64,000 bases of DNA, taken from contig OX597816.1 in the NCBI GenBank assembly GCA_951406725.2, forward strand, positions 3,844,001 through 3,908,000, read 5' to 3'. Both the position numbers and the translations under genes were made by a program. Below are positions 1,421-61,258 of this stretch, piece after piece (position 1 is the stretch's first letter; each line of letters opens with the position of its first letter). This stretch comes from Octopus vulgaris (Eukaryota). Under the pieces are notes generated by a model that saw only the letters and a list, made by a program, of their open reading frames with translations, searched no databases and was not told where the DNA came from.

Positions 1421-2019
1421 ATCTTAGCACAATCTTCTTAGATGCCGATTCACATGGTTAATGTTATTCAAAAAGGCTATGAAGTGCCCAATAGCGAATT
1501 AGACCGCTTGGTAGTGGCCTCCCACAACCACTAGATCTCAAAATATACAATATTATTGAATATTTATGGTGCACTTTGGAGCAGCAAGTCAGAACGCGCT
1601 TCCATCTGTCTGAAAGAGCTGAAGCAAGTTTTAATTTAAAAAATAGCTGAAAATTCTGCTTAAAGCTGTCAAGAACCTGTGAGCGTCAATTCCTCAATGG
1701 ATTGAAAAACCATGATTGATGCCAAACCTGGACCAAATATGTAGTAAGTTCTAAAAGTTACATTTAACAAGAGGTTTCCATTATTTTGTTCACACACACA
1801 CACCAAAAAGGAAATAACCGACCGGAATAAATCTTATTAGCAGAAATTTCATTGTTTAATTTGACCAAACGCCTTACTTTTAGCTGCCTTAAGTAACATA
1901 GTGAGTGAGTATAAGTACCCTATGAAAGTTATTCATCTCTGGTCGCTTTGATCTGCCTCTTCATTAGGCCTGGATGTCAGTTCTAATCCCGGCTGTGGAT
2001 TATAACTAGTATGTACTAA

Positions 2020-2250
2020 GGCGGTGACCTGGCAGAAACGTTAGTACGCCGGGCGAAATGCGTGGCCGTATTTCGCCTGCCGTTACGTTCTTGGTTCAAA
2101 TTCTGCCGAGGTCGACTTTGCCTTTCATCCCTTCGGGGTCGATAAATTAAGTACCGGTTACGCACTGGGGTCGATGTAATCGACTTAATCCGTTTGTCTG
2201 TCCTTGTTTGTTCCCTCTGTGTTTAACCCCTTGTGGGTAGTAAAGAAATA
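2020..2250 (+). mobile_element. tRNA-derived SINE family A, monomer
   Basis: Head GGCGGTGACCTGGCAGAAACGTTAG, B-box-like GGTTCAAATTC, central GGTCGACTTTGCCTTTCATCC..GGGGTCGATAAATTAAGTACC; 16-bp target-site duplication (TSD) TAT(A/G)ACTAGTATGTAC at 2001-2016 and 2251-2266. Confidence 0.9.
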
Positions 2251-3160: not shown

Positions 3161-3187
3161 ATATTTTATATTATTTTATAATATAAC

Positions 3188-3419
3188 GGCGGCGAGCTGG
3201 CAGAATCGTTAGCACGCCGGGCGAAATGCGTAGGCGTATTTCGTTTGCCGTTACGTTCTGAGTTCAAATTCCGCCGAGGTCGACTTTGCCTTTCATCCTC
3301 TCGGGGACGATAAATTAAGTACCAGTTACGCACTGGGGTCGATATAATCGACTTAATCCGTTTGTCTGTCTTTGTTTGTCCCCTCTGTGTTTAGCCCCTT
3401 GTGGGTAGTAAAGAAATAG
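3188..3419 (+). mobile_element. SINE family A, monomer
   Basis: Near-identical to 2020-2250; TSD TATTTTATAAT at 3172-3182 and 3421-3431. Confidence 0.9.
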
Positions 3420-8474: not shown

Positions 8475-8678
8475 TTCCCCTTTTACTTGTTTCAGTCATT
8501 TGACTGTGGCCATGCTGGAGCACCGCTTTTAGTCGAGCAAATCGACCCCAGGACTTATTCTTTGTAAGCCTAGTACTTATTCTATCGGTCTCTTTTGTCG
8601 AACCGCTAAGTTACGGGGACGTAAACACACCACCATCGGTTGTCAAGCGATGTTGGGGAAACAAACACAGACATAAAA

Positions 8679-8713
<35 letters not shown>

Positions 8714-8891
8714 CATATACATATATACGACGGGCTTCTTTCAGTTTCCGTCTACCAAATCCACTCACAAGGCTTTGGTCGACCCGTGGCTATAGTAGAA
8801 GACACTTGCCCAAGGTGCCACGTAGTGGGACTGAACCCGGAACCATATGGTTGGGAAGCATGCTACTTACCACACAGCCACTCCTACGCAT
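8475..8891 (-). mobile_element. SINE family B
   Basis: Full-length reverse complement of the family B consensus. Confidence 0.9.
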
Positions 8892-9976
8892 ATGCACTAA
8901 GTATCCATTTTCGTCTTCGATCCCATTGTCTGTTTCCATCTGAGGTTTCGATACGAAGCGTTGTAGCAAAAACCAGTGCTGGTTATAATCTCTATAGAAT
9001 ATCTGTGGAAACAACCTTAACAACGAAGAGTGAGATTTATGTTCCAGGTCAGCCGTATCTACCAGAAAATTGCCGTGAAGAGATGTTGAACTATTCTTCT
9101 AGCTTTTGTGCAACAGTAAATGATTTTTTAATGATTTTGTTGGCATTTTCAGACGAGGACTTAAAAGTCTAATTTCATGGAAGAGCCATTTTGCTGCCAA
9201 CGCTTCTATTGATTTTATCCACGGAGAGGCAAAACCTGGTTTGATCTGAGATGAAGATGTAAAATGATGTCACTAAATGTGGTGAAGTGGTTAGATTCTC
9301 TGTGTAATGTTTCCATAACTTGAGCTACTTATAGGGCTGTGGCCATGCTGCAGCATCACATTGAAGGATTTAAGCAAAGCGGCTTCGGTGCTTGATTTCT
9401 TAAGTTTGACCGATTCTATGGGGTTCTTTTACTGAACGCTTGGCAACCGATGTTTGTTTGTTTACACTCCGTAAACTGGAGGTTCGACTAAAGATATCGA
9501 TAAAAAATTTTATAGATAAATTTTCAAGAATGCACTATAACGGATAAATTCAATGCTTGAACGTTTATTTGAAAACAAATCATATTGAATTCAAAATGGA
9601 ATTTGATATGAAAACGCGATAAAGAATTGCTATACCAGATTGAAACACTTGAGATATTTTGGGGTGAAGGTACGGTGGATGGGGAAGTAATACTATTCTC
9701 GAAGGGGTTAAAGGAAAATAGGGAATCGGTGAGACTTAAAAATACCAGATAAAAGGATGAAGCATAGGACAACAAGACAATTTACTTTATTTTCTTTAGT
9801 GGAATTTCGTTCTTCAGACAAAAGGTGAGTGTAGAGTGTAGAAATAAATGAATGTATGCAACCATCTACTTAAGGTACAGAGACAGATGGGTAAGCAGTG
9901 GGGCGCATCAATACAAAATTGTTACCAGTTCAAATGTGTTTGGGGCGTATTCAAACCCGTTAGGAAATCAGTCACT

Positions 9977-15320: not shown

Positions 15321-15713
15321 GATGGCGAGCTGGCAGAAACGTTAGCACGCCGGGCAAAATGCGTACCCGTATTTCGTCTACCGTTACGTTCTGAGTTCAA
15401 ATTCCGACGAGGTCGACTTTGCTTTGCATCCTTTCGGGGTCGATAAATAAAGTACCAGTTACGCACTGGGGTCGATATAATCGACTTAATCGGTCTGTCT
15501 GTCCTTGTTTGTCCTCTCTTTGTTTAGCCCCTTGTGGGTAGTAAAGAAATAGGTATTTCGTCTGCCGCTACGTTCTGAGTTCAAATTCCGCCGAGGTCGA
15601 CTTTGCTTTTCATCCTTTCTGGGTCGATAAAGTACCATTTGGGTACTGGGGTCGATCTAATCGACTGGTTCCCTCCCCCATAATTTCGGGCCTTGTGCCT
15701 AGAATAGAAAAAG
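15321..15713 (+). mobile_element. SINE family A: head, one 185-bp unit, terminal unit with alternative tail
   Basis: Junction GAAATAGGTATTTC at 15546-15559; ends GGTCGATCTAATCGACTGG..GGGCCTTGTGCCTAGAATAGAAAAAG. Confidence 0.9.
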
Positions 15714-16189
15714 TTTAGAAGGGTGTCAGTGGAGCAGTAGTCAAAGCGTATTACAGTATTTAGTTCCGTATCTTTAGGGTGAGTTCAAATGGTTCTCGGA
15801 TCGAACTACGTTGCATCAATTTGGATGAATATAGTTGTTTATAATCTATAGTTGCGTAAAAGTGTGAGCGTAAGAATTCACAAGAATTAATCGCCAAAAC
15901 ACATATGAACCGGTTGATAAGAATATATAAATTATAAGAGTAGAAATTAATATTATTTATTGATATTAAATAATATCAATTTCAACTAGTGGTCAACATA
16001 CATAAAGATGTCCGAGGACCGTGAATTTTATTTATTTTAGCATACAAGGGATCCAATATAGTGATATCTCATTTCTTTATGTTTAATTATATAAATTATA
16101 ACTGTTTAACGTTTTAAGTCCGATGTGATAAAAGGCGATATATGAAAGGGGAATTTCAATACAGAAACAAGCAAAAGCTGTGTAAATGA

Positions 16190-30440: not shown

Positions 30441-30656
30441 CAATGGCGAGCTGGCAGAAACGTTAGCACGCCGGGCGAAATGCTTAGCAGTATTTCGTCT
30501 GCCGCTATGTTCTGAGTTCAAATTCCGTCGAGGTCGACTTTGCCTTTCATCCTTTCGGGGTCGATAAATTAAGTACCAGTTGTGTATTGGGGTCGGTCTA
30601 ATCGACTGCTCCCCCCCCCAATATTTCTGGTCTTGTGCCTAGAGTAGAAAAGAATA
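30441..30656 (+). mobile_element. SINE family A with alternative tail only (no internal repeat unit)
   Basis: Head and core followed by GGTCGGTCTAATCGACTG..CTTGTGCCTAGAGTAGAAAAG. Confidence 0.9.
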
Positions 30657-32265: not shown

Positions 32266-33081
32266 GAGTGTAAGTGCTGCAAGAATTAAAAATTCTAGAA
32301 TTGGTACGACTGCTTGAGTTTTCGAATCGTTCAGTCACTTTTGGCTCCTGCATGCGACTCATTTCTGGTAATGTCTTCGATATTAATTCCCTTCTAGGTT
32401 CTCTTTTGATTACAGTTAAAGAATTACTTCGAATGCTGCAATTAATTCAATTCTCTGGCAGAATCCTTCCAGCATTGGCAATTTTGTAATAGTCTTGATA
32501 GCAATTTGAATTTGGAATTAATATTCATCGGAGAAACGAAATATGAATTGCAACACTCAAGCCTTATCCAACTCGCATTAACAGCATTATTCAAATATAA
32601 GACAACCAATTTCGATTCAAAGTCAAGCAAAATCGCGGCTTTCTCTCAGCGTTTCTCAACTGTTTACATTACAGTCCTCATGGCTACCGTATTCGACAAA
32701 TTACGTTCCTAAGTTCATGTTATGATTTCACTTAGTTTTTTCTTTTTCATAGTTTTTCACTGCAGACGGGTGAATACAAGTCACTTAATGAGAGTAATAA
32801 AGCGGGTAAAACAACTTACAATGATAATAATAATAATAAAACACCAGGACTTACAAATTTATATAAACCTCAGGACATACGAATGTATATACCATACTGA
32901 AAATTGCACGACTAGGCACCGCACACATCCTACGTAAAACACTTTCAATACAGTAAAAATAAGAGTACCACAACAAACTCCAGCACATATCTAAGGCACA
33001 CAGAGCTGCGCTCGGTAGTGAAGTGAAGGCATGTGATAAAAATAAGACTACTGAATAATAATGTTAATAATAATAATAATG

Positions 33082-33112
<31 letters not shown>

Positions 33113-33134
33113 TAATAATAATAATAGTAATAAT

Positions 33135-34350
33135 AATGCCAAAAATTTGATTACCGCAATGAATATCTGAGCAGTTGTGGTGGTCAGATATAGTGCGTCC
33201 ATCCTCAAATGGACTAAGGAGGAAATATCAACACTGGATAGAAGGACGAGAAAATTGATGACGCAGCATGGGGCGCTACACCCTAAAGCAAATGTAAACA
33301 GACTGTATATGAAAAGGAAGAATGGTGGCAGAGGAATAATTAGTATAGACCATTGTATAAAGAGTGAAGGGGGAACGCTTGCCGAGTATTTGATAAATAG
33401 TGATGAAGACTTGTTGCAATATGCTGCGAAAGATAAGGGTGGATATGCAGATGAAATGATGGACAAGGAAGAGTCTAACCAAAGAGCTGAGGAGAAGAGA
33501 AAAGAAGACCTTCTTGAAATGAGAATGCATGGAGAGCGTGAAAGGAATACACAGGACGTTAAGGATAATACAGTATCGTGGGCATGGCTTGAGCGAGGTG
33601 ATTTGAAGCGTACCACCGAAAACCTGATCATTGCTGCACAAGACCAGGTTCTCGCTACCAAATCAGTGAAGTATAGCATCTACAAAACTTTTGACACTCA
33701 GAAATGCAGACTCTGTGGAAAGAGTGTGGAAAATGTGACCCACTTGGTAAGTGGATGTGAGAGCCTTGCACAAAAAGAATACAAGCGCCGCCACGATAAA
33801 ATGTGTGTGTATTTTTATTGGCTCTTATGTTGTAAATACCAATATAAAGTAAAAGAGAACTGGTATGAGCATGTACCAAGTAAAGTTATGCTGGAGGATG
33901 GAAAAGTAACGATACTCTGGGACTATTTTCAGGCGGACCGTGTGATCGAAAACTGTCGGCCGGATATTGTCATATTGAATAAGAGGGACGAATACTGTCA
34001 AATCATTGATGTAGCCATACCAAATGACATGAATGTTGTGAGTAAAGAGGTTGAAAAAATCCCCAAGTGCTCCGGATTGAAAGTGGAAATGGCAACACTG
34101 TATGGAATGCGAGAGGATAATGTAAAAGTGATACCAGTGGTGATCGGAGCGTTGGGCTCAATTCCAAGGAAACTTCAAGACTTCTTAAGGCAACTGGAAA
34201 TCCCATGCAAGATTGATGTCTTGAAAAAAGCAGCCTTATTGGGGACAGCGTACATCTTAAGGAAAGTATTATCTGTCTGAGGTCCTTCTTGTGACTTGAC
34301 AGATGACTAAAGACTCCGGTGCATTTTTACCTTCACTGTGTTACGAAGGA
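33135..34350 (+). mobile_element. R4/Dong-like RLE non-LTR retrotransposon, 5'-truncated, in (TAA)n
   Basis: Flanked by TAA repeats on both sides; encodes RT thumb, CCHC finger and RLE; short 3' UTR. Dong elements are known to target TAA repeats. Confidence 0.9.
33177..34280 (+). pseudogene. C-terminal 367 aa of an R4/Dong-like ORF (RT thumb, zinc knuckle, restriction-like endonuclease)
   Basis: RLYMKRKNGGRG, AAQDQVLAT, CRLCGKSVENVTHLVSGC, YKRRHD, RPDIVI..IIDVAIP, VIPVVIGALG; in-frame TGA just upstream and 5' truncation. Confidence 0.9.
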
Positions 34351-34361
34351 ATAATAATGAT

Positions 34362-34735
34362 AAGGAGGGACAAACAAAAGTAGCCAATATTCGACGTAGC
34401 AGTACCAGGAGATCAATATATCATCATGAAAGAGAAAAAAGTCGATAAATATGGAGACCTGAGAATTGAGATCGCTAAAATGTGGTAGCTACGAGAGTCA
34501 AACATGAAGGCTGTTCCTATTGTCATCGGAACATTGGGTTCAATACCAACCAACCTGAAGAAACATCTGGAAACTTTAGAAATACCCTACAATCTAGGTG
34601 TATTGCAAAAGTCGGCATTACTTGGAACTGCACACATATTGTGTAAGGTACTGTCTGTCTGAGGTCCTTGTTGTGACTTGACAAATAGTACAAATGCCTG
34701 GTAGAGTCAATATCTTCAATCAATAATCTCACGAT
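34362..34735 (+). pseudogene. Second R4/Dong-like 3' fragment (related subfamily)
   Basis: DVAVPGD..KYGDLRIEIAKMW*..VPIVIGTLGSIP..LQKSALLGTAHILCKVLSV*; 3' UTR starts TGAGGTCCTTGTTGTGACTTGACA like the first copy. Confidence 0.85.
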
Positions 34736-34789
34736 ATTGTATGCTGTGCGACATCTATAATAATAATAATAACAACAACAACAATAATA

Positions 34790-34948
34790 AACAAATAGGG
34801 GCTGCAATAAGGGAGCAGCACTTGCAGAAAGCAGCACTGCTTGGAACCGCTCGAATACTCCTAAAAATAAGGGGCGTTTTCTTAGTTCACTGGTAGTGAA
34901 CAGCTGGCACCGCAGTACATTTCCAGCATTAGGAGCTGTGCAAAGACA
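34790..34948 (+). mobile_element. Third short R4/Dong-like 3' fragment
   Basis: EQHLQKAALLGTARIL plus a distinct 3' UTR, between AAT runs. Confidence 0.7.
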
Positions 34949-34951
34949 ATA

Positions 34952-34997
<46 letters not shown>

Positions 34998-35073
34998 TGA
35001 TATGATGATGATGATGATAATAGCATGATATGATATGATATGATATGATATGATGATGAATGATGATGATGAT

Positions 35074-35111
<38 letters not shown>

Positions 35112-35133
35112 AAACAACAACAACAACAACAAC

Positions 35134-37298
<2,165 letters not shown>

Positions 37299-37324: not shown

Positions 37325-37505
37325 TAATCCTTTCTACTATAGGCACAAAACCTGAAATTTCAAGAGAGGGGATTAGTCGATTTTAGTCCAGTGTTTTACT
37401 GGAACTCAATTTATTGACCCTGAAAAGATGAAAGGCAAAATGGACCTTGGGCGGAATTTGAACCCAGAACGTAGCGACAGGCGAAATCCCGCGCCAGCTT
37501 GCCAT
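37325..37505 (-). mobile_element. Diverged SINE family A (alternative tail)
   Basis: GATGAAAGGCAAAATGGACCTTGGGCGGAATTTGAAC. Confidence 0.7.
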
Positions 37506-37514
37506 AATAACAAG

Positions 37515-37875: not shown

Positions 37876-38796
37876 GCTTTCTATTGGTTGCTTTTTCAGG
37901 GCGGTTTTTGTAAACTCATAGGATGAAGCTACCGTTGCCATTCAGGGGTGGTTGCCATTTAGGGTTGGTAGTCAATGAAGGCGAGTGAATCATTGAATGC
38001 GAAATAATGTTTCATTGGAATTGGTAATAGTGAAGGCACAAATTATTCCGGGAATGTTAACAAATTGTAAGAGAAATATAATAAAAGTTGCAGAAAATAG
38101 AAAAAATATTACGATAAACCTGAGTTGATTAACCGAAGAGAAAGTTCATAGAAATGATGTAAGGTAGGTGATAGTGTATGAAATAATTCATCGGATTAGT
38201 GATTACTGAAACGAAAACAGCAGGGATTAGGGAATAATATGGCTTATCGGTGATTTTAGCTTTGCAACTATGAATGCTGATGCGAAGTAATTTGAGGTAA
38301 AGGAAAAAAAAAAAGAAACCCAAAATTATGAAAGTTTTGGATGCAATAATGCAAACAAATGCTTTGGTGGATTTGGTCCTTTCAGATAAGATCAAAGCAA
38401 TATCGCTTCGAAGGGGACAAACTACTCAGATCCCTCGAAATTTAGATATGTTCTGCACCTGTAATTTATTGATTTGTGTTCGAAGAACGGTAGAGAGATT
38501 TCAAAGCAAAACAGCGTAATTTCCAATTAGAGTTTGTTCTTTCATTTGAGAACATTTCAATTCTCTCTTCGTTAAATCGTTGAATTGTTTTAATAGTCAG
38601 TTAATATGAAGAGAACATGCTATTGGTCATTATTGTAATACACCCATAAAGATACAAGACAAGGTGGTCTTAGACATGACCTGAAGTTGTAATATAGGAA
38701 CAACACAGTCTTTCCGAGTACAGATGGTCCGGAACCTCTTATAATCTGCACTAATTTGCAAAAAGGTACAGTCACCTGTATTTAATTATTTAACTC

Positions 38797-38960
38797 AATT
38801 TCCGCCGAGGTCGACTTTGCCTTTCATCCTTTCGGGGTCGATAAATAAAGTACCGGTTTCGCACTGGGGTAGATGTAATCGACTTAATCCCTTTGTCTGT
38901 CCTTGTTTGTCCCCTCTATGTTTAGCCCCTTGCGGGCAATAAAGAAATATAAAGAAATAT
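38797..38960 (+). mobile_element. 5'-truncated SINE family A
   Basis: TSD TATTTAACTCAATTT at 38787-38801 and 38960-38974; 3' end AAAGAAATAT is repeated twice. Confidence 0.9.
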
Positions 38961-39602
38961 ATTTAACTCAATTTAACATTTGTTTAATTTAGAGGGCGCT
39001 GACTAAGGAAGCCTTAGTTCCGAAAAATCCGGAAAGGTTTCGAAATTAAAACAGTTTTGAAAATTCTGTGTTGTACCTGAATCAGCGACGTTAATTAACT
39101 CCAGTCTATAGGTATTGTGTGTGGGTGACACTACACACGGACATTCGCCGAACAAATGTTTCTTTTGATAGTAGGCGATTAAACAACAGAGAGTTTGTGG
39201 CAAGGAAACCATGTCTCTTTGTAAATGAGAAGCAGAGCATCACGTGTACACAGCCATTCCTTTTAGACATGGAATACAAGCATCCCAATACACAGGATCA
39301 ATTTTGCTATTTGAATAATGACTAAACGTGGGTTTGATTATTTGATGGCGACTGAATACAAGGGTTTTATAGAATATTCTTAGGCTGAATAAACAAGCGA
39401 GCTAACGCCAAACATTTCTGATTCCTTTTAGAATTCAACAATGGTAAAATATTCTTTGCCGTTATTGGTTGGAGCTTGTAGCAACTTTTCTACATTCAAT
39501 ATAACTGTTGTTAAACAGGATGTTTGTAAAATAAACAATCGAGTGATTGCCAGGAAAGTGAGATTAATTGTTAACGAAGTTATGAAGAGAAATGCCAAGC
39601 AT

Positions 39603-39978
39603 AGGCGCAGGCGTGGCTGTGTGGTAAAGAGCTTGCTTCCTAGCCACATGGTTCCGCGTTCAGTCCTACTGCGTAACACCTTGGGCAAGTGACTTCCACT
39701 ACAGCCTGAAGCCAACCAAAGCCTTGTGAGTGGATTTGGTAAACAGAAACTGAAAAGAACTGCGCGCGCGCGTGTGTGTGTGTCCGTACGTATTACCGCT
39801 TAATAATCGGTATTGATGTGTTTCTTCTCTTCAGAACTTAGCGGCTCGGCAAAAGAAACCGATAGAATGAGTACAGGCTTAAAAAAAAAATAGATACTGG
39901 AGTCGATGCGTTCAACTAACATTCGCCAAGTCGATGCTCCAGCATGGTCGCAGTCTAATGACTGAAACAAATAAAGGA
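39603..39978 (+). mobile_element. SINE family B (diverged)
   Basis: Matches family B head and tail. Confidence 0.85.
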
Positions 39979-40076
39979 TATATTTCCTTGTTTTTTTAGA
40001 TAAACGCTTGCATTTGTTTCTTATCAGAGAATCGATCTCTGATGCGTTTTGCTTTGATGATGAAAACATTAGAAAT

Positions 40077-41951
40077 CGAAACTTCAAATTTTGGAACAAG
40101 GGCAGTAATTCCAGAGGAAGGGGGAAATTGATTACATCTACCCCCATCTTCAACGGGTACTAATTTTATAGGCTTCGAAACGATGAAAAGCAATGTCGAC
40201 CTCGGCGGAATTTGAACTGAAAACATAAAGACGCATGAAATACCTATTTCTTTACTACCCACAAGGGGCTAAACACAGAGGGGACAAACAAGGACAGACA
40301 TAGGTATTAAGTCGATTACATGGACCCCAGTGTGTAACTGGTACTTATTTAATCGACTCCGAAAGGATGAAAGGCAAAGTCGACCTCGGCGGAATTTGAA
40401 CTCAGAACGTAACGGCAGACAAAATACCTAGGTCTTTACTACCCACAAGGGGCTAAACACTGAGAGGACAAACAAGGACAGACAAACGGATTAAGTCGAT
40501 TACATTGAATGCAGTGCGTAACTGGTACTTATTTAATCGACCCCCGAAAGGATGAAAGGCAAAGTCGACCTCGGCGGAATTTGAACTCAGAACGTAACGG
40601 CAGACAAAATACCTAGTTCTTTACTACCCACAAGGGGCTAAACACAGAGAGGACAAACAAGGACAGGCAAACGGATTAAGTCGATTACATTGAATGCAGT
40701 GCGTAACTGGTACTTATTTAATCGACCCCCGAAAGGATGAAAGGCAAAGTCGACCTCGGCGGAATTTGAACTCAGAACGTAACGGCAGACAAAATACCTA
40801 TTTCTTTACTACCCACAAGCGGCTAAACACTGAGAGGACAAACAAGGACAGACAAACGGATTAAGTCGATTACATTGAATGCAGTGCGTAACTGGTACTT
40901 ATTTAATCGACCCCCGAAAGGATGAAAGGCAAAGTCGACCTCGGCGGAATTTGAACTCAGAACGTAACGGCAGACAAAATACCTAGTTCTTTACTACCCA
41001 CAAGGGGCTAAACACAGAGAGGACAAACAAGGACAGACAAACGGATTAAGTCGATTACATTGAATGCAGTGCGTAACTGGTACTTATTTAATCGACCCCC
41101 GAAAGGATGAAAGGCAAAGTCGACCTCGGCGGAATTTGAACTCAGAACGTAACGGCAGAGAAAATACCTAGTTCTTTACTGCCCACAAGGGGCTAAACAC
41201 AGAGAGGACAAACAAGGACAGACAAACGGATTAAGTCGATTACATTGAATGCAGTGCGTAACTGGTACTTATTTAATCGACCCCGAAAGGATGAAAGGCA
41301 AAGTCGACCTCGGCGGAATTTGAACTCAGAACGTAACGGCAGACAAAATACCTAGTTCTTTACTACCCACAAGGGACTAAACACTGAGAGGACAAACAAG
41401 GACAGACAAACGGATTAAGTCGATTACATTGAATGCAGTGCGTAACTGGTACTTATTTAATCGACCCCGAAAGGATGAAAGGCAAAGTCGACCTCGGCGG
41501 AATTTGAACTCAGAACGTAACGGCAGACAAAATACCTAGTTCTTTACTACCCACAAGGGGCTAAACACAGAGAGGACAAACAAGGACAGACAAACGGATT
41601 AAGTCGATTACATTGAATGCAGTGCGTAACTGGTACTTATTTAATCGACCCCCGAAAGGATGAAAGGCAAAGTCGACCTCGGCGGAATTTGAACTCAGAA
41701 CGTAACGGCAGACAAAATACCTAGTTCTTTACTACCCACAAGGGGCTAAACACTGAGAGGACAAACAAGGACAGACAAACGGATTAAGTCGATTACATTG
41801 AATGCAGTGCGTAACTGGTACTTATTTAATCGACCCCGAAAGGATGAAAGGCAAAGTCGACATCGGCGGAATTTGAACTCAGAACGTAACAGTAGACGAA
41901 ATACTGCGAAGCATTTCGCCCGGCGTGCTAACGTTTCTGCCAGCTCGCCGC
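40077..41951 (-). mobile_element. SINE family A with 9 tandem 184-185 bp units
   Basis: Junctions at about 40241, 40425, 40610, 40795, 40980, 41165, 41349, 41533 and 41718; single head at 41900-41951; TSD AACAT(T/G)AGAAAT at 40065-40076 and 41955-41966. Confidence 0.92.
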
Positions 41952-42476
41952 TTTAACATGAGAAATAATCATATCACTTTTCGTTAGATAATTATAGGAG
42001 TAACAACTGATTCTAGTTAAATTACCAGTAAATACTGAGACAATATTCGTAAGATGGCATTGAAAATGTCACATTAAACACATATTCGTTCTTATATCGC
42101 TTCATTGCCTTACACTACGCGTAACTGTTTTTTCCTTTTAATACCATCATCGAAATTTCCTTCCTCCTGCCTGCAATTATTGTTTCGCTTTCAAAGACAC
42201 AATTTTTTCTTCAGATGCGTAGTTTCATTGCTAACCAATAATTTATTAGCAGCTAAAATTATTTATTTGCAGAACCAAACTGATTTGTCGAAATATTGCA
42301 CTGACGAGAGATAAATTTGTCTTCCTAATGTCACAAGAAGTAATATATTGTTTTATTTTGACAGGCTACAAGTCTATTTTGTATGGTTGAGAGATAGCGA
42401 AATTTCTTGTCGATATCTTAAACTCGATAAAATTAAATACATATATATATGTGTGTGTGTGTGTATATATACATAC

Positions 42477-42526
<50 letters not shown>

Positions 42527-42536
42527 TATATATATA

Positions 42537-42667
42537 TAATATTAGGAATAAATCCAAATTTACAGGGAAAAAAGATCAGATTTTATAGTAAAATATTATA
42601 AAATAAATTTTGCAAACCAATCAATTCCAAAAATTTTATGTATTGTTAAAAAATGTGGTTTTGTCTC

Positions 42668-42735
<68 letters not shown>

Positions 42736-42944
42736 AATATTAGAATAAATCCAAATTTACAGGAAAAATCACTTTAGGATTAAATCCAATTTTATAGTAA
42801 AATATTATAAAATATTATTAGAGAAAAAACAAACAAGAAAGACTTAATCAATACATAAAATTTTAATAAATAGTCAAAAAAATTTTATGTATTGATTAAG
42901 TCTTTCCTTGTTTGTTTTGCAAAATAGTGGTTTTGTCTCTAATA

Positions 42945-42955
<11 letters not shown>
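42537..42955. mobile_element. Two tandem copies of an AT-rich fold-back element in (TA)n
   Basis: Both start ATATTAG(G)AATAAATCCAAATTTACAGG; the second contains an inverted repeat AAACAAACAAGAAAGACTTAATCAATACATAAAATTTT and its near reverse complement. Confidence 0.65.
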
Positions 42956-42992
<37 letters not shown>

Positions 42993-43101
42993 GTCTGTAC
43001 ATAGTCTTGATCTCATGTTAGTGAGTGAGTAAACTTATTGAAAAATACCGTTTTACTGCCAAAGTCTCCTCGGCCATCTTCGAGGCCAAGTGCGTGCGTG
43101 C

Positions 43102-43137
<36 letters not shown>

Positions 43138-43305
43138 TTTATGTCATTGGTTCTAAAATAAAATAAGCCAAAGTTTATCGATGCTTGAAGAACTTCTATT
43201 TATTCCATTTTAGAACCAATGACATTGGTTAGCATCGATATAGCGACTGATTAGATATTTTATGTGATTGCATCCTATATGTTAACCTGTGTGCGATTCC
43301 ATTGA

Positions 43306-43352
<47 letters not shown>

Positions 43353-44007
43353 CATGTGTGTGCAAGCGTGTGAGCCTGTGTGTGCAAGTGTGTGACCGTG
43401 TGTGTGTGTGTGCAGCAATATCGTATTATGTCAAAGTGCCATTGGGCTACGTGTCACAAAGACACATTGACTTTGCATCTATTCTTAGAAATCTCTCTTT
43501 CAAACATTACAGTGTTGTAAACACTCGTATCTTCATATAACTCATCCCCAAACTATAACACATATGTGATACGTAACATCTCGTTAACCCGAATCTTTCA
43601 GAGTATTGTTTCTGTTTGCGAATACAACATTTCCTGTAGCAAAGAAATTACGGAACCTAAATGACAAGGAATCTTGGTTCAGAAAAGGTTATGTTTTCGC
43701 CTGATGGAAGTATATCCGATACCATTAATCTAAATGCCAAGCTTACTCCCATAGTTTCTTATCATTGCATCAAATTGTTATGGTAAAGATAAGGATTCCG
43801 AAGTCTACGTAAATCGAAATATCTATTAATATCTCTAACAAAAACCTGTTGGGCGTTACTCTCTATCGATAATAAGTATTCTTCTGGTCTTAGATATTAA
43901 GAAATATTTTTCCTTTTTTACCGTTTGGTATCACGTCTAGTTTGACCAAGAGACCATCTTCGACATTAATTTTGGGGATTTTGAAAAGTTATTCTATGTT
44001 GATATAT

Positions 44008-45144
44008 TCTTTTCTTCTCTAGGTACAACGCCTGATATTTGGGGCGGGGGACAGTCGGTTAGATCGACCCCAGTACGCAACTAGTGCTTAATTTATCGAC
44101 CCCCGAAAGGATGAAAGGCAAAGTCAACCTCGGCGGAATTTGAACTCAGCACGTAACGGCAGACAAAATACCTATTTCTTTACTACCCACAAGGGGATAA
44201 AAACAGAGGGGACGAACAAGGACAGACATAGGTATTAAGTCGATTACATCGACCCCAGTGCGTAACTGGTACTTATTTAATCGACCCCCGAAAGGATGAA
44301 AGGCAAAGTCAACCTCGGCGGAATTTGAACTCAGCACGTAACGGCAGACAAAATACCTATTTCTTTACTACCCACAAGGGGATAAAAACAGAGGGGACGA
44401 ACAAGGACAGACATAGGTATTAAGTCGATTACATCGACCCCAGTGCGTAACTGGTACTTATTTAATCGACCCCCGAAAGGATGAAAGGCAAAGTCAACCT
44501 CGGCGGAATTTAAACTCAGCACGTAACGGCAGACAAAATACCTATTTCTTTACTACCCACAAGGGGATAAAAACAGAGGGGACGAACAAGGACAGACATA
44601 GGTATTAAGTCGATTACATCGACCCCAGTGCGTAACTGGTACTTATTTAATCGACCCCCGAAAGGATGAAAGGCAAAGTCAACCTCGGCGGAATTTAAAC
44701 TCAGCACGTAACGGCAGACAAAATACCTATTTCTTTACTACCCACAAGGGGATAAAAACAGAGGGGACGAACAAGGACAGACAAACGGATTAAGTCGATT
44801 ACATCGACCCAAGTCCGTAACTGGTACTTATTTAATCGACTCCCGAAAGGATGAAAGGCAAAGTCAACCGCGGCGGAATTTAAACTCAGCACGTAACGGC
44901 AGACAAAATACCTATTTCTTTACTACCCACAAGGGGATAAAAACAGAGGGGACGAACAAGGACAGACATAGGTATTAAGTCGATTACATCGACCCCAGTG
45001 CGTAACTGGTACTTAATTTATCGACCCCCGAAAGGATGAAAGGCAAAGTCGACCTCGGCGGAATTTGAACTCAGAACGTAACGCAGACGAACTACAGCTA
45101 CGCATTTTGCCCGGCGCGCTAACGATTCTGCCAGCTCACCGCCC
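44008..45144 (-). mobile_element. SINE family A with 5 tandem 185-bp units
   Basis: Junctions at about 44169, 44354, 44539, 44724 and 44909; one head; alternative tail at 44008-44100; TSD TTCT(A/G)T(G/A)TTGATATAT at 43992-44007 and 45145-45160. Confidence 0.92.
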
Positions 45145-45451
45145 TTCTGTATTGATATATCGTTGGATTAATGATTGAAAAATGGCACATTGCATCTGAG
45201 TATCATGCCTCTATGGCGACCATAACCAATGTATTTATAGCACCTTGACCCAGTAAGGTATGTGTAAATTAATGACATTGACAGGTTAATTGCAATTATT
45301 CAGACGGAATCCCTATTATACTATTGAAGTGTTTAGGGTTGGGGTTGATGTCATCGTGATTGGAAACTCAGTATGATTTGGGATAAGAAGCTTTCAGATA
45401 ACGCATTCGTTCAACGGGCAATAACACTTAACCACTAAACGCTGAGTATAT

Positions 45452-45630: not shown

Positions 45631-47622
45631 CAACCGGCTAAAATATTGTCAGCTGCATCACTTCCATCTGTCAGACGTAGCCCCTACTGGAATCAAAGAA
45701 ATGCAATCTCCAAAACAGTTTGAAATCTGTCATTACCAATGAACGAATAACTGAGGGGGGGGGGAAGTGGGGCCATCGCGAAAATTAAACGCAACTCCAA
45801 AGTTTTCTTCTCTTTCGCCAAAAAACATAAGGTCGCTCTCTCATCTGTCGGTTCGCTGATTGCCGAAGACAACACTCTCCGTAGTACAGCAGAAGACATG
45901 GAAGAAGTTCTGCAGAAACAATACTGCTCTTCTTTCAGCAATCCCGGTATTGTTAACCTGGTCAACATATATGAAAATATAAACAAAACCCCCACAGCAG
46001 ACCCTTTCTGACATCTCATTCGACGCCTTGAGCATCATAGCAGCTATTAGAAAAATAAAGAACAAATCAGATGCAGGCCAAAATAGGTCCCCCGATAGAG
46101 TCCTGAAATAGTACTGACTCCAGTTAGCTCTCCCCTTAGCTTCTCTCTGGAAAAAATTAATGGATGCAAGCTATATCCCTGAATATTTCCTCTCCCAGGC
46201 GATTACCCCAGTTTTCAAGAAAGGCAAAAATTCACTCGCCTGGAACAACCGACCGATCTCACTTTCCTCTCATATCATCAAATTATTTGAGAGTGGTGAG
46301 ATCTCGACTCATTCGCTACTTGGAATCAAACAGCCTGAGTATTCCCAACCAGCATGGCTTCCACAATGAAAGGAACTGCTCAACACAGATCTTACATCAT
46401 TTCAATGACATCTTAAAGGCCATGGGAGACAGCGCCAATGCAGATGTCACATACCTTGACTTCAGCAAAACCTTTGACAGGGTTGATCATTGCATCCTGT
46501 TAAAGAAACTCTTCAACATTGGAGTCTGAGGAAAACTGTTAACTTGGATTAAATATTTTCTGATGAACAAAACTCAACGAGTGGCGATTGATATTTTTCC
46601 CATCGATCTCAGCGTTGTGGGACTCCACTTATATAGTTGAAGCCCACGAGGCACTGTACTGAGCCCGCTTCTTTTCATAATTTATATTAACGACATCACT
46701 GACGTCATCAAACACAGTAGCATGCATATTTTGCGGATGACTAAGTTACTGAAGATTGTTGACAGGGTTGATGACCAGACAAATCTTGAATCTGATCTGT
46801 TAGTTGTTATCCAACAGGCAGAGAAACATAAAATGCAGCTAAACGAGAAAAAGTTCAACACAACGCACTTCGGTAAAGAGAGTTCATTCCAACAACCATG
46901 CACTCTTCCCTCGGGCGAAACCCTCGTGGTGTCAAGCACTGCTAGAGACCTGGGTGTTACTGTTGACAACAAAATAAGCTAGAGTGCTCACATAAACAGC
47001 AAAGTTGTTTTGGCTCGCAGGGCGTGCTCCTGGATCCTCAAGACCTCCCGGTCTAGAGTCGTCCCTACCATTATTCTACTTTTCTCTACTTTTGCTCGCC
47101 CTCACCTTGAAAACTGTTGTCTCCTGTGGTCCCCCCACACGATACAGAATACTATGAAAATTGAAGCTCCTCAGAGATCAATCACAAAAATATAGATGAC
47201 ACGAGAAGCCTTGATTATTGTGGTTGGCTAAAAAGATCAGGCTTTACTCCCTCCAACGCCGCCGTTGATGCAGAAATTATTCCATCAACATCGCCCAAAT
47301 GATATAGATATCATCTTTTATCTTCATCCCGAGGCTTGCACCGCCCTCGCCATCCGTCCACTACAGAAATCATGTTCGTGTCGTATCACAACACTACAAC
47401 AGAACTATTTCACCTCAACTGGCCCTGCTCTCTTCAACATCGTGCCAACCCGCATAAAGGACGAAAGTGATTGCACGACATTCAAACGGTCCCTAGATGA
47501 TTAGCTCCAACAAATACCAGATAAACAACCCACAGACAGATATGTCTCTGAAAACAATAACTCTCTGCTCAAATGGACTATGGTGCCCAAGGTGGTGTTA
47601 TTGAATTAGACATGGCCCCGGC
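45631..47622 (+). pseudogene. CR1-clade LINE ORF2 (reverse transcriptase) pseudogene, 5'-truncated
   Basis: IKRNSKVFFSF, ITPVFKKG..RPISLSSHIIKLFE, NQHGF, YLDFSKTFDRVDH, PRGTVLSPLLFIIYINDI, FADD, RDLGVTVD, RPHLENC; several stops and frameshifts. Confidence 0.92.
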
Positions 47623-52032: not shown

Positions 52033-53304
52033 CACGGGGGTTTTTCATTAAAGATTACCTCTGGTCCACTTTCCGTTATTACAGGAAACGGAACTTGTAC
52101 AAGTATAGTCATACCTTCCTCTACGTGTCACATTGTAAATCGGAGTTTTCCATCAGTATTCGTTTGTCTTTTACGGCTGCTGAAGTGGACTAGGGATACA
52201 GTTGAATGCGGATCAGTGATCAGGTTCTTATTCTTGAAAGGTCATACACCAAAGGAGACTTTCAATGAGATGAAAGTTTATGGTGATGGTGCACCATCAT
52301 TCGACTTAGTCAAATACTGGCATCGCCAGTTCAAAGGTGGTCGCACATCGGTGGAAACTGCTTCTCTTCCTCGACGACCACATTCCGTCATTGATGACGA
52401 TGCCATCCACAAAGTGGATCCATTTTGGAGGATCACCGCATAACTATTCGGCTCCTAGCCCAAGAAATGAAGATCAGTGTAGGGTCCGTAGAAAAAATTA
52501 GTCACTACAATTTGCACATACAGAAGTTTTCTGCACGGTTGATTCCCGCTGATGCTCACACCTTTTCAGAAGCAGGAACGAATCAATTGCTTCCAGGCTC
52601 TTTTGGCAGTATGCCAAGAAAACGAGGAGGACTTTTTCGGCAGACTTATCACATGGGATAAAACATGGGTCGATCACTATGATGCTGAGACTAAAGTCCA
52701 GTCAAAGCAATTGAAGCATGATAACTCACCACCTCGAAAGAAGGCTCGTGTCCAACCCTCAGCAGGCAAGGTGATGCTCACAGTCTTTTGGGACCAGCAC
52801 GGATTAGTGATGAGGGATTTTCTGACAAAGAGCACCACAACTAACTTATACTTCTCAGTTGCAGAAATTGTGGGGCGCCATCAAAGCAAAGAAGTGTAGC
52901 ATGCTGACCACAGTAGTCTACCTCCTCCAAGACAATACCCCAGTTCACAATGTGCATGTTACCCAGATTAAAGCACACGCCTACGGCTATGAAATCCTTC
53001 CTCATCCCCCTTATTCTCCTGACCTCGCACCGTCTGACATCCACCTCTTTCGAGCTTGAAGTACTTTTTGAAGGGGAAACACTGTTCGGATGATAATGAA
53101 TGTATTTCCAAGGTAAAGTCTTAGTTCCAAACACAACCTACCAACTTCTACAGACGAAGTCTTCTCGGCTGCATAAAGCGATGGGAGAAGTGTGTCACCA
53201 TTGGTGGTGTCCATGTAGGAAAGGACTAATAATTATGCCAAGTTTCGTTTATCCCAGTCCTTGGGAAGTGGATCAGGGGAAATCTTTAATGGACATCCCT
53301 CGAG
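52033..53304 (+). mobile_element. Full-length degenerate mariner (D,D34D; irritans/Himar1-like)
   Basis: Imperfect TIRs at 52033-52071 and 53266-53304; about 1.27 kb; next to (TA)n. Confidence 0.9.
52180..53230 (+). pseudogene. Mariner transposase pseudogene
   Basis: [28 protein letters not shown] (HTH); ARLIP; ITWDKTWV; AGKVMLTVFWD; LLQDNTPVH; HPPYSPDLAPSDIHLF; frameshifted. Confidence 0.9.
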
Positions 53305-53309
53305 TGTGT

Positions 53310-53362
53310 GTATGTATGTACATACATACACACACACACACATATATATGTATGTATGTGCG

Positions 53363-53402
<40 letters not shown>

Positions 53403-53568
53403 TACGACAGGCTTCTTTCAGTTTCTGTCTACCAAATCCACTCACAAGGCTTTGATCGACCCGAGGCTATTGCAGAAGACACTTGCCCAAGGTACCATGC
53501 AATGGGACTGAACCCGGAACCCTGTGGTTGGTAAGTTAGCTACTTACCACACAGCCACTCCTGCGCCT
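53310..53568 (-). mobile_element. SINE family B 5' half
   Basis: Reverse complement of the head; abuts the mariner right TIR through the microsatellite. Confidence 0.85.
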
Positions 53569-53839
53569 GTTGTAAGTCAATTCAAATCTCCCGCTTAGTT
53601 GCAAAAAGTATAACTTATTGTTAACGTGCCTCTAAGAAACTGAAGTGAGTTAAAGGAAACAAATGCAATTGACTGATTGCGCAAGTCCATATAAATATGT
53701 CAAGGTGTGCAGAAACGGACGGCATCACGCAAAAATCCAAATTTCTCTTTTAGATGAAGGAAAATGAAAACTTTGTGGTAACTGTTCGCAACTTTGAAAG
53801 GAAGGGGAGATAATCTCAAAATATCCATAAGTAATTTCA

Positions 53840-54001
53840 CGCACAGGAGTGGCTGTGTGGTAAGTAGCTTGCTTACCAACCACATGGTTCCCAGTTGAGT
53901 CCCATTGCGTGGCATCTTGGGCAAGTGTCTTCTGCTATAGCCTCGGGCCGACCAAAGCCTTGTGAGTGGATTTGGTAGACGGAAACTGAAAGAAGCCCGT
54001 C

Positions 54002-54050
<49 letters not shown>

Positions 54051-54372
54051 CGTGTGTGTGTGTGTGTATGTATGTTTGTCCCCCCAACATCGCTTGACAA
54101 CCGATGCTTGTGTGTTTACGTCCCCGTAACTTAGCGTGTTTATGTGTATATGTTTGTGTGTCTGTGTTTGTCCCCACCACCACCACCACCATCGCTCAAC
54201 AACCATTGTTGGTGTGTTTACATCTCCGTAACTTAGCGGCTCGGCAAAAAGAGATGATAGAATAAATACTAGGCTTACAAAGAATAAGTCCTGGCGTCGA
54301 TTTGCTCGACTAAAGGCCGTGCTCCAGCGTGGCTGCAGTCAAATGACTGAAACAAGTAATAGAGTAAAAGAG
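53840..54372 (+). mobile_element. SINE family B with internal duplication
   Basis: The segment GTTTGTCCCC..CGTAACTTAGCG occurs twice (about 54075-54136 and 54165-54238). Confidence 0.9.
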
Positions 54373-57439: not shown

Positions 57440-58335
57440 TACAGCCTTAAATTGTTGAGGAGACCAATTTTAAGACGGAAATAAAAGTTACATGGAGGGC
57501 ACATATAGTTCTAGACGCCAACGGGCGTGTCAGCTGACCGTCCTTTAGAGAAGTCAGGTTTGTTTTCCACTGCATGAATGTTTGTCTCTTGTGAGGATTT
57601 GGCACCTTTGCTGATGTGAATATGCTACACAGTTCATTTCTGGCGAAGCTGTTCTCAGGAGTCTGTTTCAAATCTCATTGCTTTAAATGCTAATTTCAGG
57701 TTCACCCCGTGATGTCCTGCGACTGTCGAATGTTCTCTCCCTTGCTACATATTTACGAAGAGAACTTGCTTTAGTTTCCTTATAGTAACCATGTGGAGGT
57801 CAGGATCGTTCCAACCAACTTCCTTCTTTTGCTTTAGAGTATGTGTTAGCGTGATTGGATCACTTGTCTCGCCATTTCTTGTGGAGCAATCGACACAGCT
57901 ATACATGTCTCCACATGTACAGAGGAGCACCGTAGCCACGGCTGTTTGGTAGATATTCAAATTGATGCTGATGTCGACATCCTTATGCGTTTCTTTACTA
58001 CCCAAAAGAGGCTAAACACAGGGGACAAACAAGGGCATACAAACGGATTAAGTCGATTATATCGACCCCAGTGCGTAACTGGTACTTATTTAATCGACCC
58101 CGAAATGATGAAAGGCAAAGTCGACCTCAGCGGAATTTGAACTCAGAATGTAACGGCAGACGAAATACGGCTACGCATTTCGCTCGGCGTGCTAACGTTT
58201 CTGCCAACTCGCCGCCTTAGGACGTTGACATCCTTATGTTCTCAAACTTTAGAACGTAGTCTTTCATCAGCTGTGTTGGCTTTAGCTATCTTAAAATTGA
58301 CCCCATCACCAGAGTGGACGTGTCTCGGGAAAGGT
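57440..58335 (-). pseudogene. RTE (BovB-like) LINE 3' remnant interrupted by SINE A
   Basis: HVHSGDGVNFKIAKANTADERLRSKV*EHKD..LNIYQTAVATVLL; C-terminal ICPPCNFYFRLKIGLL zinc-finger-like end. Confidence 0.65.
57988..58217 (-). mobile_element. SINE family A, monomer
   Basis: TSD GA(T/C)GT(C/T)GACATCCTTATG at 57970-57987 and 58221-58238. Confidence 0.9.
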
Positions 58336-60889: not shown

Positions 60890-61258
60890 TGGCTAATTGT
60901 TGCAAATTTTGGCACGAGATCAGCAATTTCAGGGGCAGCAGTAAATCGATTATATCGACCCCAGTATTAAACTGGTATTTTATTGACTCTGAAAGGATGA
61001 AAGGCAACGCCAACCTAGGCAGGGTTTTAGCTCAGAATGTGAAGATCCGGAAGAAACCAAGCTAAACAACAACAACAACACTACCAGCTCGCCGCTTCAC
61101 CCAGTCATCGATAATTCTTTCTGTTGGAAGCACAAGACCTCAAATTTAGGGGAAGGGATTAAGTCGATTACATCGACCACAGTGCGTAACTGGTACTAAT
61201 TTTATCGACCCCGAAAGGATGAAAGGCAAAGTCAACCTCGGCGGAATTTGAACTCAGT
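60890..61258 (-). mobile_element. Two adjacent SINE family A copies (one diverged, one partial)
   Basis: GGATGAAAGGCAA motif at about 60995 and 61217. Confidence 0.75.

Follow-up and report, generated by a model that had tools for sequence, protein, structure and literature searches.

Tandem arrays derived from short interspersed nuclear elements (SINEs) have been described in bivalves and reptiles. In S. broughtonii, a blood clam, they take the form TSD1-(SINE)n-TSD1, with 4-15 units inside a pair of target-site duplications (TSDs) (Martelossi et al., 2024, PMC11481361), and in squamates, SINE-derived satellites (sSat) span the forms between internal duplications and long arrays (Vassetzky et al., 2023, PMC10702118). 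The origin of tandem repeats from SINEs is an open question; the papers on reptiles and bivalves deal with the end products, for which they appeal to unequal recombination. In R1 and R2 elements, the complementary DNA (cDNA) anneals to upstream homologous target sequence and insertion can be repeated at a regenerated site; where R1 transcripts carry upstream target sequence, this homology gives precise 5' junctions (Stage and Eickbush, 2009, PMC2718515). Here, we analyze a 64,000-nucleotide stretch of the Octopus vulgaris genome (assembly GCA_951406725.2, contig OX597816.1, positions 3,844,001 to 3,908,000; hereafter the window, with coordinates counted from its first letter), which holds two arrays of a 185-bp unit from a SINE family with, to judge from its copies, at least three tails (A, B and C). 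The tail-A units of these arrays are joined to other family members at one fixed internal point. The array architecture as such is already known, and no new class of element is revealed; what appears to be new is a fixed target site within the family, common to bodies of different age. The accessible parts of the clam and squamate accounts (PMC11481361, PMC10702118) describe no fixed internal target site, and we found no published account of this family's junction in a search that did not reach the main cephalopod SINE papers or Repbase/Dfam.

Tandem Repeats Finder reports two period-185 arrays, at 40176-41904 (9.4 copies, 96% matches) and 44053-45095 (5.6 copies, 96% matches), both of which read on the minus strand. 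Array 1 starts with a TSD (41955-41966) that agrees in 11 of 12 letters with its downstream partner (40065-40076). It continues with a tRNA-like head with an A box (41905-41954), nine tail-A units of 184-185 bp (U1-U9; 40244-41904, with boundaries at 41904, 41720, 41535, 41351, 41167, 40982, 40797, 40612, 40427 and 40243) and a terminal piece (40077-40243), an old tail-C family copy whose first bases are exactly GTATTT. The head looks young, with 3 differences in 47 positions from the majority head of the window, and has B/C-type bases immediately before the junction point. Array 2 consists of an upstream TSD (45145-45160; 14 of 16 letters alike to the downstream TSD at 43992-44007), a head that is A-type before the junction point (45096-45144), five tail-A units with mosaic haplotypes and a T5 run in each (44172-45095), and a tail-B body as the terminal piece (44008-44171). 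For each array, the TSD score was reached by 1 of 300 nulls, that is, among 300 random segment pairs per locus. Tandem Repeats Finder, the minus-strand reading and the TSD nulls therefore agree with the original prediction, made from the letters alone, that a head plus nine units and a head plus five units each lie within one TSD pair. The arrays are unlikely to be assembly artefacts, because the units differ in variants and the junction recurs in independent public contigs; the unit numbers are those of this one assembly.

A third composite, a dimer on the plus strand (15322-15713), is formed by a head, one tail-A unit (15369-15552) and a tail-B body (15553-15713). Both this dimer and a copy that lacks the unit altogether, the tail-B monomer at 30441-30655 (plus strand), had been predicted and do exist, but their TSDs are no better than chance (149 and 253 of 300 nulls as good, respectively). 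The dimer's tail B is followed by a decayed, head-like family stretch (15714-15790, plus strand), which may hide its TSD.

The arrays resemble those of the clam in having one TSD pair, a full first tRNA head, head-truncated repeats and a last copy with the same head truncation; some of the clam structures also mix SINE families, and their last copy has a full tail. However, the clam unit has a truncated tail, whereas the unit described here carries the complete tail of an independently mobile subfamily, its last body belongs to another subfamily, and the junction is the same across loci (PMC11481361). With the squamate satellites, they have in common that the SINE is longer than the unit, that SINE ends lead and trail the array, that one unit is found at several loci and that the units are homogenized, with lengths in a similar range (70-290 nt). 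Those satellites, however, are mainly duplications by unequal recombination and often long and subtelomeric, while the arrays in the window are short, bounded by TSDs and seeded by a junction between subfamilies (PMC10702118). Their make-up is that of a SINE-derived satellite, for which four middle monomers are the minimum, with units shorter than the SINE, 8 middle units in array 1 and 4 in array 2, and both SINE termini present.

That the unit belongs to an independently mobile subfamily follows from the dispersed copies. Those at 2020, 3188 and 57988 had been taken for unit-only monomers; each is instead a complete SINE with head, core, tail A and TSD (2019-2250, plus strand; 3187-3419, plus strand, with an ambiguous TSD start and also called 3185 here; 57988-58217, minus strand), so that the unit equals this subfamily minus its first ~50 bases. 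A further tail-A monomer (38795-38958, plus strand) is 5'-truncated and has a TSD and a doubled tail end. Five independent tail-A copies are 9.7% apart, and the tail-A units differ by 3-7% from the consensus in the window. TSDs are above chance at six of the 11 loci examined, as in dispersed SINEs. The family head shows what we take to be A-box-like and B-box-like motifs, yet neither ARAGORN nor Rfam gives a tRNA match.

The most conspicuous feature of the composites is their junction, which lies at one identical point, ...TAG|GTATTT, between the A- and B-box-like motifs in 15 of 15 cases in the window. The claim of a shared breakpoint at independent loci, beyond chance, is thus borne out, and the same junction is also seen in public contigs. 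The letters that had been given for it apply to array 1 in part: AAAGAAATAG is found at only two of its nine junctions, AAAGAACTAG at six and AAAGACCTAG at one, and the last junction runs on as GTATTTCATGCG. All 15 junctions have G immediately before GTATTT, a position that is C or T in five of five A-type heads and G in the old-type head consensus from public contigs. This G matches B/C-type and not A-type heads; on the simplest reading of these letters, the GG at the junction would come from the target, a B/C-type copy that was cleaved at C^GGTATTT, and not from the incoming tail A. No G follows AAAGAAATA at the ends of monomers 2020 and 38795. At the six loci with TSDs above chance, comprising monomers and arrays, the TSDs start with TAT, GATATTT, TATTT, CATA, ATTT and ATAT, similar to the internal site, and in the public contigs AT-rich flanks lie upstream of heads genome-wide. 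The palindrome GAAATA-GG-TATTTC, which had been noted at the junction of the dimer, is not confined to multimers: in monomers 3185 and 38795, AAATA likewise has a TATTT no more than two bases behind it, there contributed by the TSD. To judge from these monomers, it simply results when an AAATA tail is set against a TATTT target.

The explanation that we favour, at a rough probability of 0.58, has family copies inserting into one another at a site within the family sequence, after which the unit is amplified in tandem by ordinary means. In the first step, tail-A RNA would be copied by target-primed reverse transcription from its normal end, AAAGAAATA, at a nick at C^GGTATTT between the A and B boxes of another family copy. 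An ordinary nested insertion leaves an upstream fragment of the host head, and none is seen at these loci; in a second step, the duplicated head of ~50 bp would therefore have to be lost, leaving head, unit and host body. This could happen in two ways: the new cDNA might anneal to the homologous head of the host copy, or transcription of the composite might start again at the inserted head, followed by its retroposition with a new TSD. The head of the dimer, which starts like the tail-B monomer at 30441 and is A-type further in, hints at such annealing to a host head at this one locus. In a third step, to which the variant patterns of the units attest, unequal exchange or slippage between homologous cores, together with conversion, amplified and homogenized the 185-bp unit after insertion. 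The outcome would be a short SINE-derived satellite, with no need for a circular RNA. In its proposed steps only, this scheme is like that of R1/R2, where re-insertion at a regenerated site leads to tandem arrays; those elements are autonomous and target the 28S rRNA genes, whereas here a non-autonomous SINE would target its own family, and its monomers insert at many AT-rich sites (PMC2718515).

In favour of insertion into relatives, the terminal bodies at the three loci are all different, with one of them 24-35% diverged, and each is joined at the same base. The original prediction of one shared alternative tail holds for array 2 and the dimer, which end in tail B, but not for array 1, which ends in an old tail-C type. 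The tail-B bodies of array 2, the dimer and monomer 30441 are 10.6-14.5% apart, with 14.5% between array 2 and the dimer. The tail-C terminal piece of array 1 differs by 24.5% from the core of monomer 3185 and by 28-35% from copies 30441, 61040 and 37485; compared by eye with the loose-end consensus of non-A contig copies, which is mixed (agreement 0.58), it differs in 6 of 30 letters. CpG counts do not separate old from young copies.

To see how far this pattern extends, four of 24 public runs (X1, X8, X13 and X14, all Logan contigs) were compared against 41701-42430, a query that comprises one head-bearing unit, 20 bases of the next unit and unique upstream flank. The family matches 378,157, 194,739, 194,365 and 145,771 contigs in these runs, respectively (the order used in the following); contigs are not loci, and summed depth is no copy number and serves as a ratio only. 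Counts of joints and loose ends are lower bounds, with six loose ends per run and 15 joints listed and 857 further joints. A loose end at 41904 with the consensus of the tail-A end occurs in at least 640 contigs of X1 and at least 370 of X8, and is not among the six listed for X13 or X14. Contigs running past the stretch ends number 717, 494, 32 and 21, the ratio of first-bin to second-bin depth is 0.17, 0.16, 0.04 and 0.03, and two places are fitted by 83, 49, 21 and 22 contigs. By these counts, the junction is common in organism A as well as organism D, but rare in organism E, where tail A is also scarcer. Among the joints listed, tail A is joined at GTATTT to old-type bodies in at least 23, 16, 1 and 0 contigs, and a neighbouring call of the same joint adds at least 17, 7, 2 and 0. 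These old-type bodies fall into two letter sets, both unlike that of array 1, and the change to old-type sequence comes directly after the junction, as predicted by priming at that site. Non-A tails joined to old bodies are also among the joints listed; the junction is dominant, not exclusive. Pattern scans for the family gave no match in viral contigs and none in metagenome contigs. One genome-contig match (L001) was rejected as a chance match in unrelated sequence, from a genome without a family copy.

These data also bear on the idea that one or two nested dimers (A+B, A+C) were founded once and acted as master genes, with the junction fixed by descent only, no ongoing preference for the site and later growth of the arrays by unequal crossover. 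We regard such an origin as unlikely, though it explains several observations: the TSD pairs around the entire composites are nearly intact, tail B terminates array 2 as well as the dimer, and a lineage-specific master would produce a junction that, as observed, is far commoner in A and D than in E. On the other hand, at least three different old-type sequences follow the junction (that of array 1 and the two contig letter sets), the two tail-B bodies are as far apart as noted above, and the subfamily type of the head varies between loci. The single dimeric master of the original prediction does not fit either, as the terminal body is a different one at each of the three loci and is old at one; in place of one right-hand monomer of uniform age, we find 14.5% between B and B and ~28% between C and B.

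The units themselves tell of a later, DNA-level phase. In array 1, U1-U8 are homogenized and U9 has a different haplotype, which resembles the units of array 2. U2-U8 of array 1 differ by 1.4% and U3-U5 of array 2 by 0.4%, compared to the 9.7% between independent copies. The orthologous upstream flank of array 1 is present in organism E, with 38 substitutions and 8 gap letters in 500 positions, and the contig enters the head by 28 bases before it ends; the organism D contig spans the upstream flank only from 42085 and is uninformative on this locus. Against the 7.6% of the flank in organism E, where the head is already there, the 1.4% of U2-U8 is low: 14 differences per unit are expected and 2.6 are observed on average (P ~3e-4 per pair, the pairs not being independent). 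Since the units are far more alike than the age of the flank predicts, the present units must be younger than the insertion of the head, which preceded the A/E split. Derived variants are shared among units in blocks, 51 of 153 informative site pairs are incompatible in the four-gamete test, and a unit tree resolves the U1-U8 clade alone (one of 15 inner branches well supported). The array-2 variants reach the terminal piece of that array, the 5' part of which is, by its letters, converted by the units.

The diagnostic bases that had been assigned to the arrays are confirmed with exceptions: the array-1 block occurs in eight of nine units, and GTGCTGAG of array 2 in units 2-5 and the terminal piece, but not in unit 1. 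Likewise, the T4 run claimed for each array unit is present in the internal units (eight in array 1; four plus the terminal piece in array 2), but not elsewhere. All five units of array 2 have T5, including the first, which lies upstream of any junction; a T5 run should stop RNA polymerase III (Pol III). As the variant patterns show, the present number and sequence of the units were shaped at the DNA level, though a short multimer may have been inserted first. The expansion after insertion, which the original prediction had offered as the simpler alternative, is favoured by the near-identical, mosaic units that are younger than the insertion.

Exchange at the DNA level could also have made the junctions themselves, if a break in a monomer was repaired from a multimeric donor in a homing-like conversion, with one or several units transferred and TSD and tail of the recipient kept. 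This would account for one head and one TSD pair with mixed terminal pieces, for variants common to two arrays 2 kb apart, and for the spread of array-2 variants into their own terminal piece. It would, however, be expected to switch at longer identical core blocks, while the switch to the old body lies no more than ~7 bases from the junction, both in array 1 and in contigs with the joint 41889->41715, and old bodies with ~20% divergence would be poor recombination partners. We consider this route improbable as the source of the junction.

Two further routes work through RNA, of which the circular one had been named in the original prediction. Here, a 185-nt circular RNA would be copied by rolling-circle reverse transcription, as in retrozymes. 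Non-LTR retrozymes are likewise small tandem repeats, from dimers to multimers, and with 150-450 bp their unit size overlaps with that of the arrays (PMC7229834); the fixed junction would fit as well. They are, however, defined by a type I hammerhead and a circular RNA (PMC7229834), while the arrays have a Pol III-type head, SINE tails and no ribozyme that we could find. Rfam gives nothing at gathering score in the window and, in array 2, no match even with E values up to 5; the CTGANGA hammerhead core is absent from both strands of three doubled units; an Rfam snoRNA match beside monomer 3185 was dismissed as chance. In predicted circular folds, four of four units are no stabler in the sense direction than shuffles (z +0.5 to -1.1), 49-58% of the bases are paired, and the lowest antisense z is -2.2, in one of the four units. 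The testable defining features of non-LTR retrozymes are thus absent, as far as these predictions go. Moreover, the junction G is not the A-type base, so a circle closed from A-type RNA would not yield it unless the master tail ends in G; the units are mosaic and younger than the insertion, and the head and the foreign terminal body would require two extra template switches. Taken together, we hold rolling-circle copying to be highly improbable, and tandem SINE units with a fixed junction are, on their own, no evidence for circular RNA. The other predicted route, self-priming at the 3' end on the complementary TATTTC, has the wrong geometry, as it should give an inverted repeat rather than the observed direct junction.

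In the second RNA route, the family RNA would be cut at the edge of a head hairpin loop and ligated to tail-A RNA, or reverse transcriptase would jump between the two, and the chimera would then be retroposed. Both template jumps by reverse transcriptases and chimeras produced by ligation are known; in its predicted fold, monomer 3185 has a long head hairpin with the junction next to the loop, and young TSDs surround the entire composite. This model would, however, require transcripts of old, decayed copies, and the join lies exactly at the end of the tail, with no terminator or flank bases, like in ordinary monomers made by target-primed reverse transcription. Joining at the RNA level therefore strikes us as very improbable.

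Several observations weigh against insertion into relatives as we propose it. There are no two-head intermediates in the window, and no pre-insertion (empty) allele was seen, the organism E contigs breaking off after 28 bases of the head. Before GTATTT, the two B/C-type heads of the window carry A, not G, which we read as CpG decay; the tail of monomer 3185 can be read, ambiguously, as ending in G, and that of 57988 ends otherwise. The young head, old tail and near-intact TSD of array 1 lean towards re-mobilization over annealing in place. Variants are also common to the internal units of array 1 and array 2 (T7 and TTAAAT, with ATACCTATG or GGAG in some of them), so that a common multimeric source or exchange between the arrays is needed, and a CpG site or a G-run, where mutations can recur, is part of some of the incompatible site pairs. 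In the contigs, a second tail-A junction (41938->41725) leads into the A-box region in at least 8, 3, 7 and 8 contigs, head-to-tail pairs occur in at least 12, 15, 6 and 4, and inverted insertions into old copies near the internal junction region in at least 27, 25, 18 and 19, each of the three types being present in every run. Since contigs are not loci, the junction contigs, though they number in the hundreds, may stem from few founders. Finally, a comparison of tails A, B and C with one region, the 3' region of a candidate long interspersed nuclear element (LINE) at 34280-34960, gave no significant match (best 17/200 shuffles).

Two of these joints have further features. The 41938->41725 joint has a high depth per contig in organism E and possibly represents another composite subfamily or array, and at the inverted joints 41889/41951 and 41889/41956, the GAAATA of the tail could pair with TATTTC on the other strand.

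Insertion into relatives might, in a tentative and in our estimation rather doubtful extension, reinforce itself. Where a unit is followed by GGTATTTT, the T4 of every internal unit, Pol III would stop and the RNA would end in GGUAUUUU; this end could pair with the nicked strand at the same site in any other family copy and seed further insertions, one unit long and at exactly that base, with homology resolving the head. If this were true, hundreds of thousands of family copies would form a site-specific landing pad, and dispersed SINEs would be turned into satellites through an RNA route. Apart from this extension, the family supplies a countable starting step for such satellites, a fixed internal insertion site that occurs commonly in two related organisms but rarely in a third, and the seeding mechanism is testable from an assembly alone.

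Beyond the copies discussed so far, the window holds an older tail-B-like copy with a deletion in its head (37326-37512, minus strand), an old tail-C copy (61040; 60897-61099, minus strand) and, adjoining it on its upstream side, a 5'-truncated family copy (61113-61258, minus strand). In the latter two (60897-61258), a truncated copy abuts the head of an old tail-C copy, and family copies thus lie side by side here as well. The core of the family appears to resemble the Deu/Nin domain. A core-motif search of the supplements of PMC11481361 and PMC4758252 gave no relevant match. In O. vulgaris, tRNA-Deu SINEs and Dong-R4 LINEs are given as recently active (PMC13282606, Table 1).

The LINE candidate lies at 33054-36758 and contains a 369-codon open frame (33171-34280, plus strand) with zinc-knuckle, RHD and PD..D motifs. 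We take these motifs to be the C-terminus of an R4/Dong-type LINE; the frame itself has no match in Pfam or PDB. It is followed by two apparent further truncated 3' ends, all in AAT repeats, with a 1.8-kb AAT array behind. The element is a candidate for the partner class of SINEs with TAT/ATT target sites, though its 3' region does not match the tails. Elsewhere in the window, there is a reverse transcriptase fragment at 46161-46529 (plus strand; RVT_1, E 4e-5, below the curated cut-off) and a helix-turn-helix fragment of a Mos1-type transposase at ~52129-52443 (plus strand; E 3e-8). A second, unrelated high-copy repeat family with similar translated stretches is found at ~39400-39990, 8500-9170 and 53100-54340, and is presumably another SINE.

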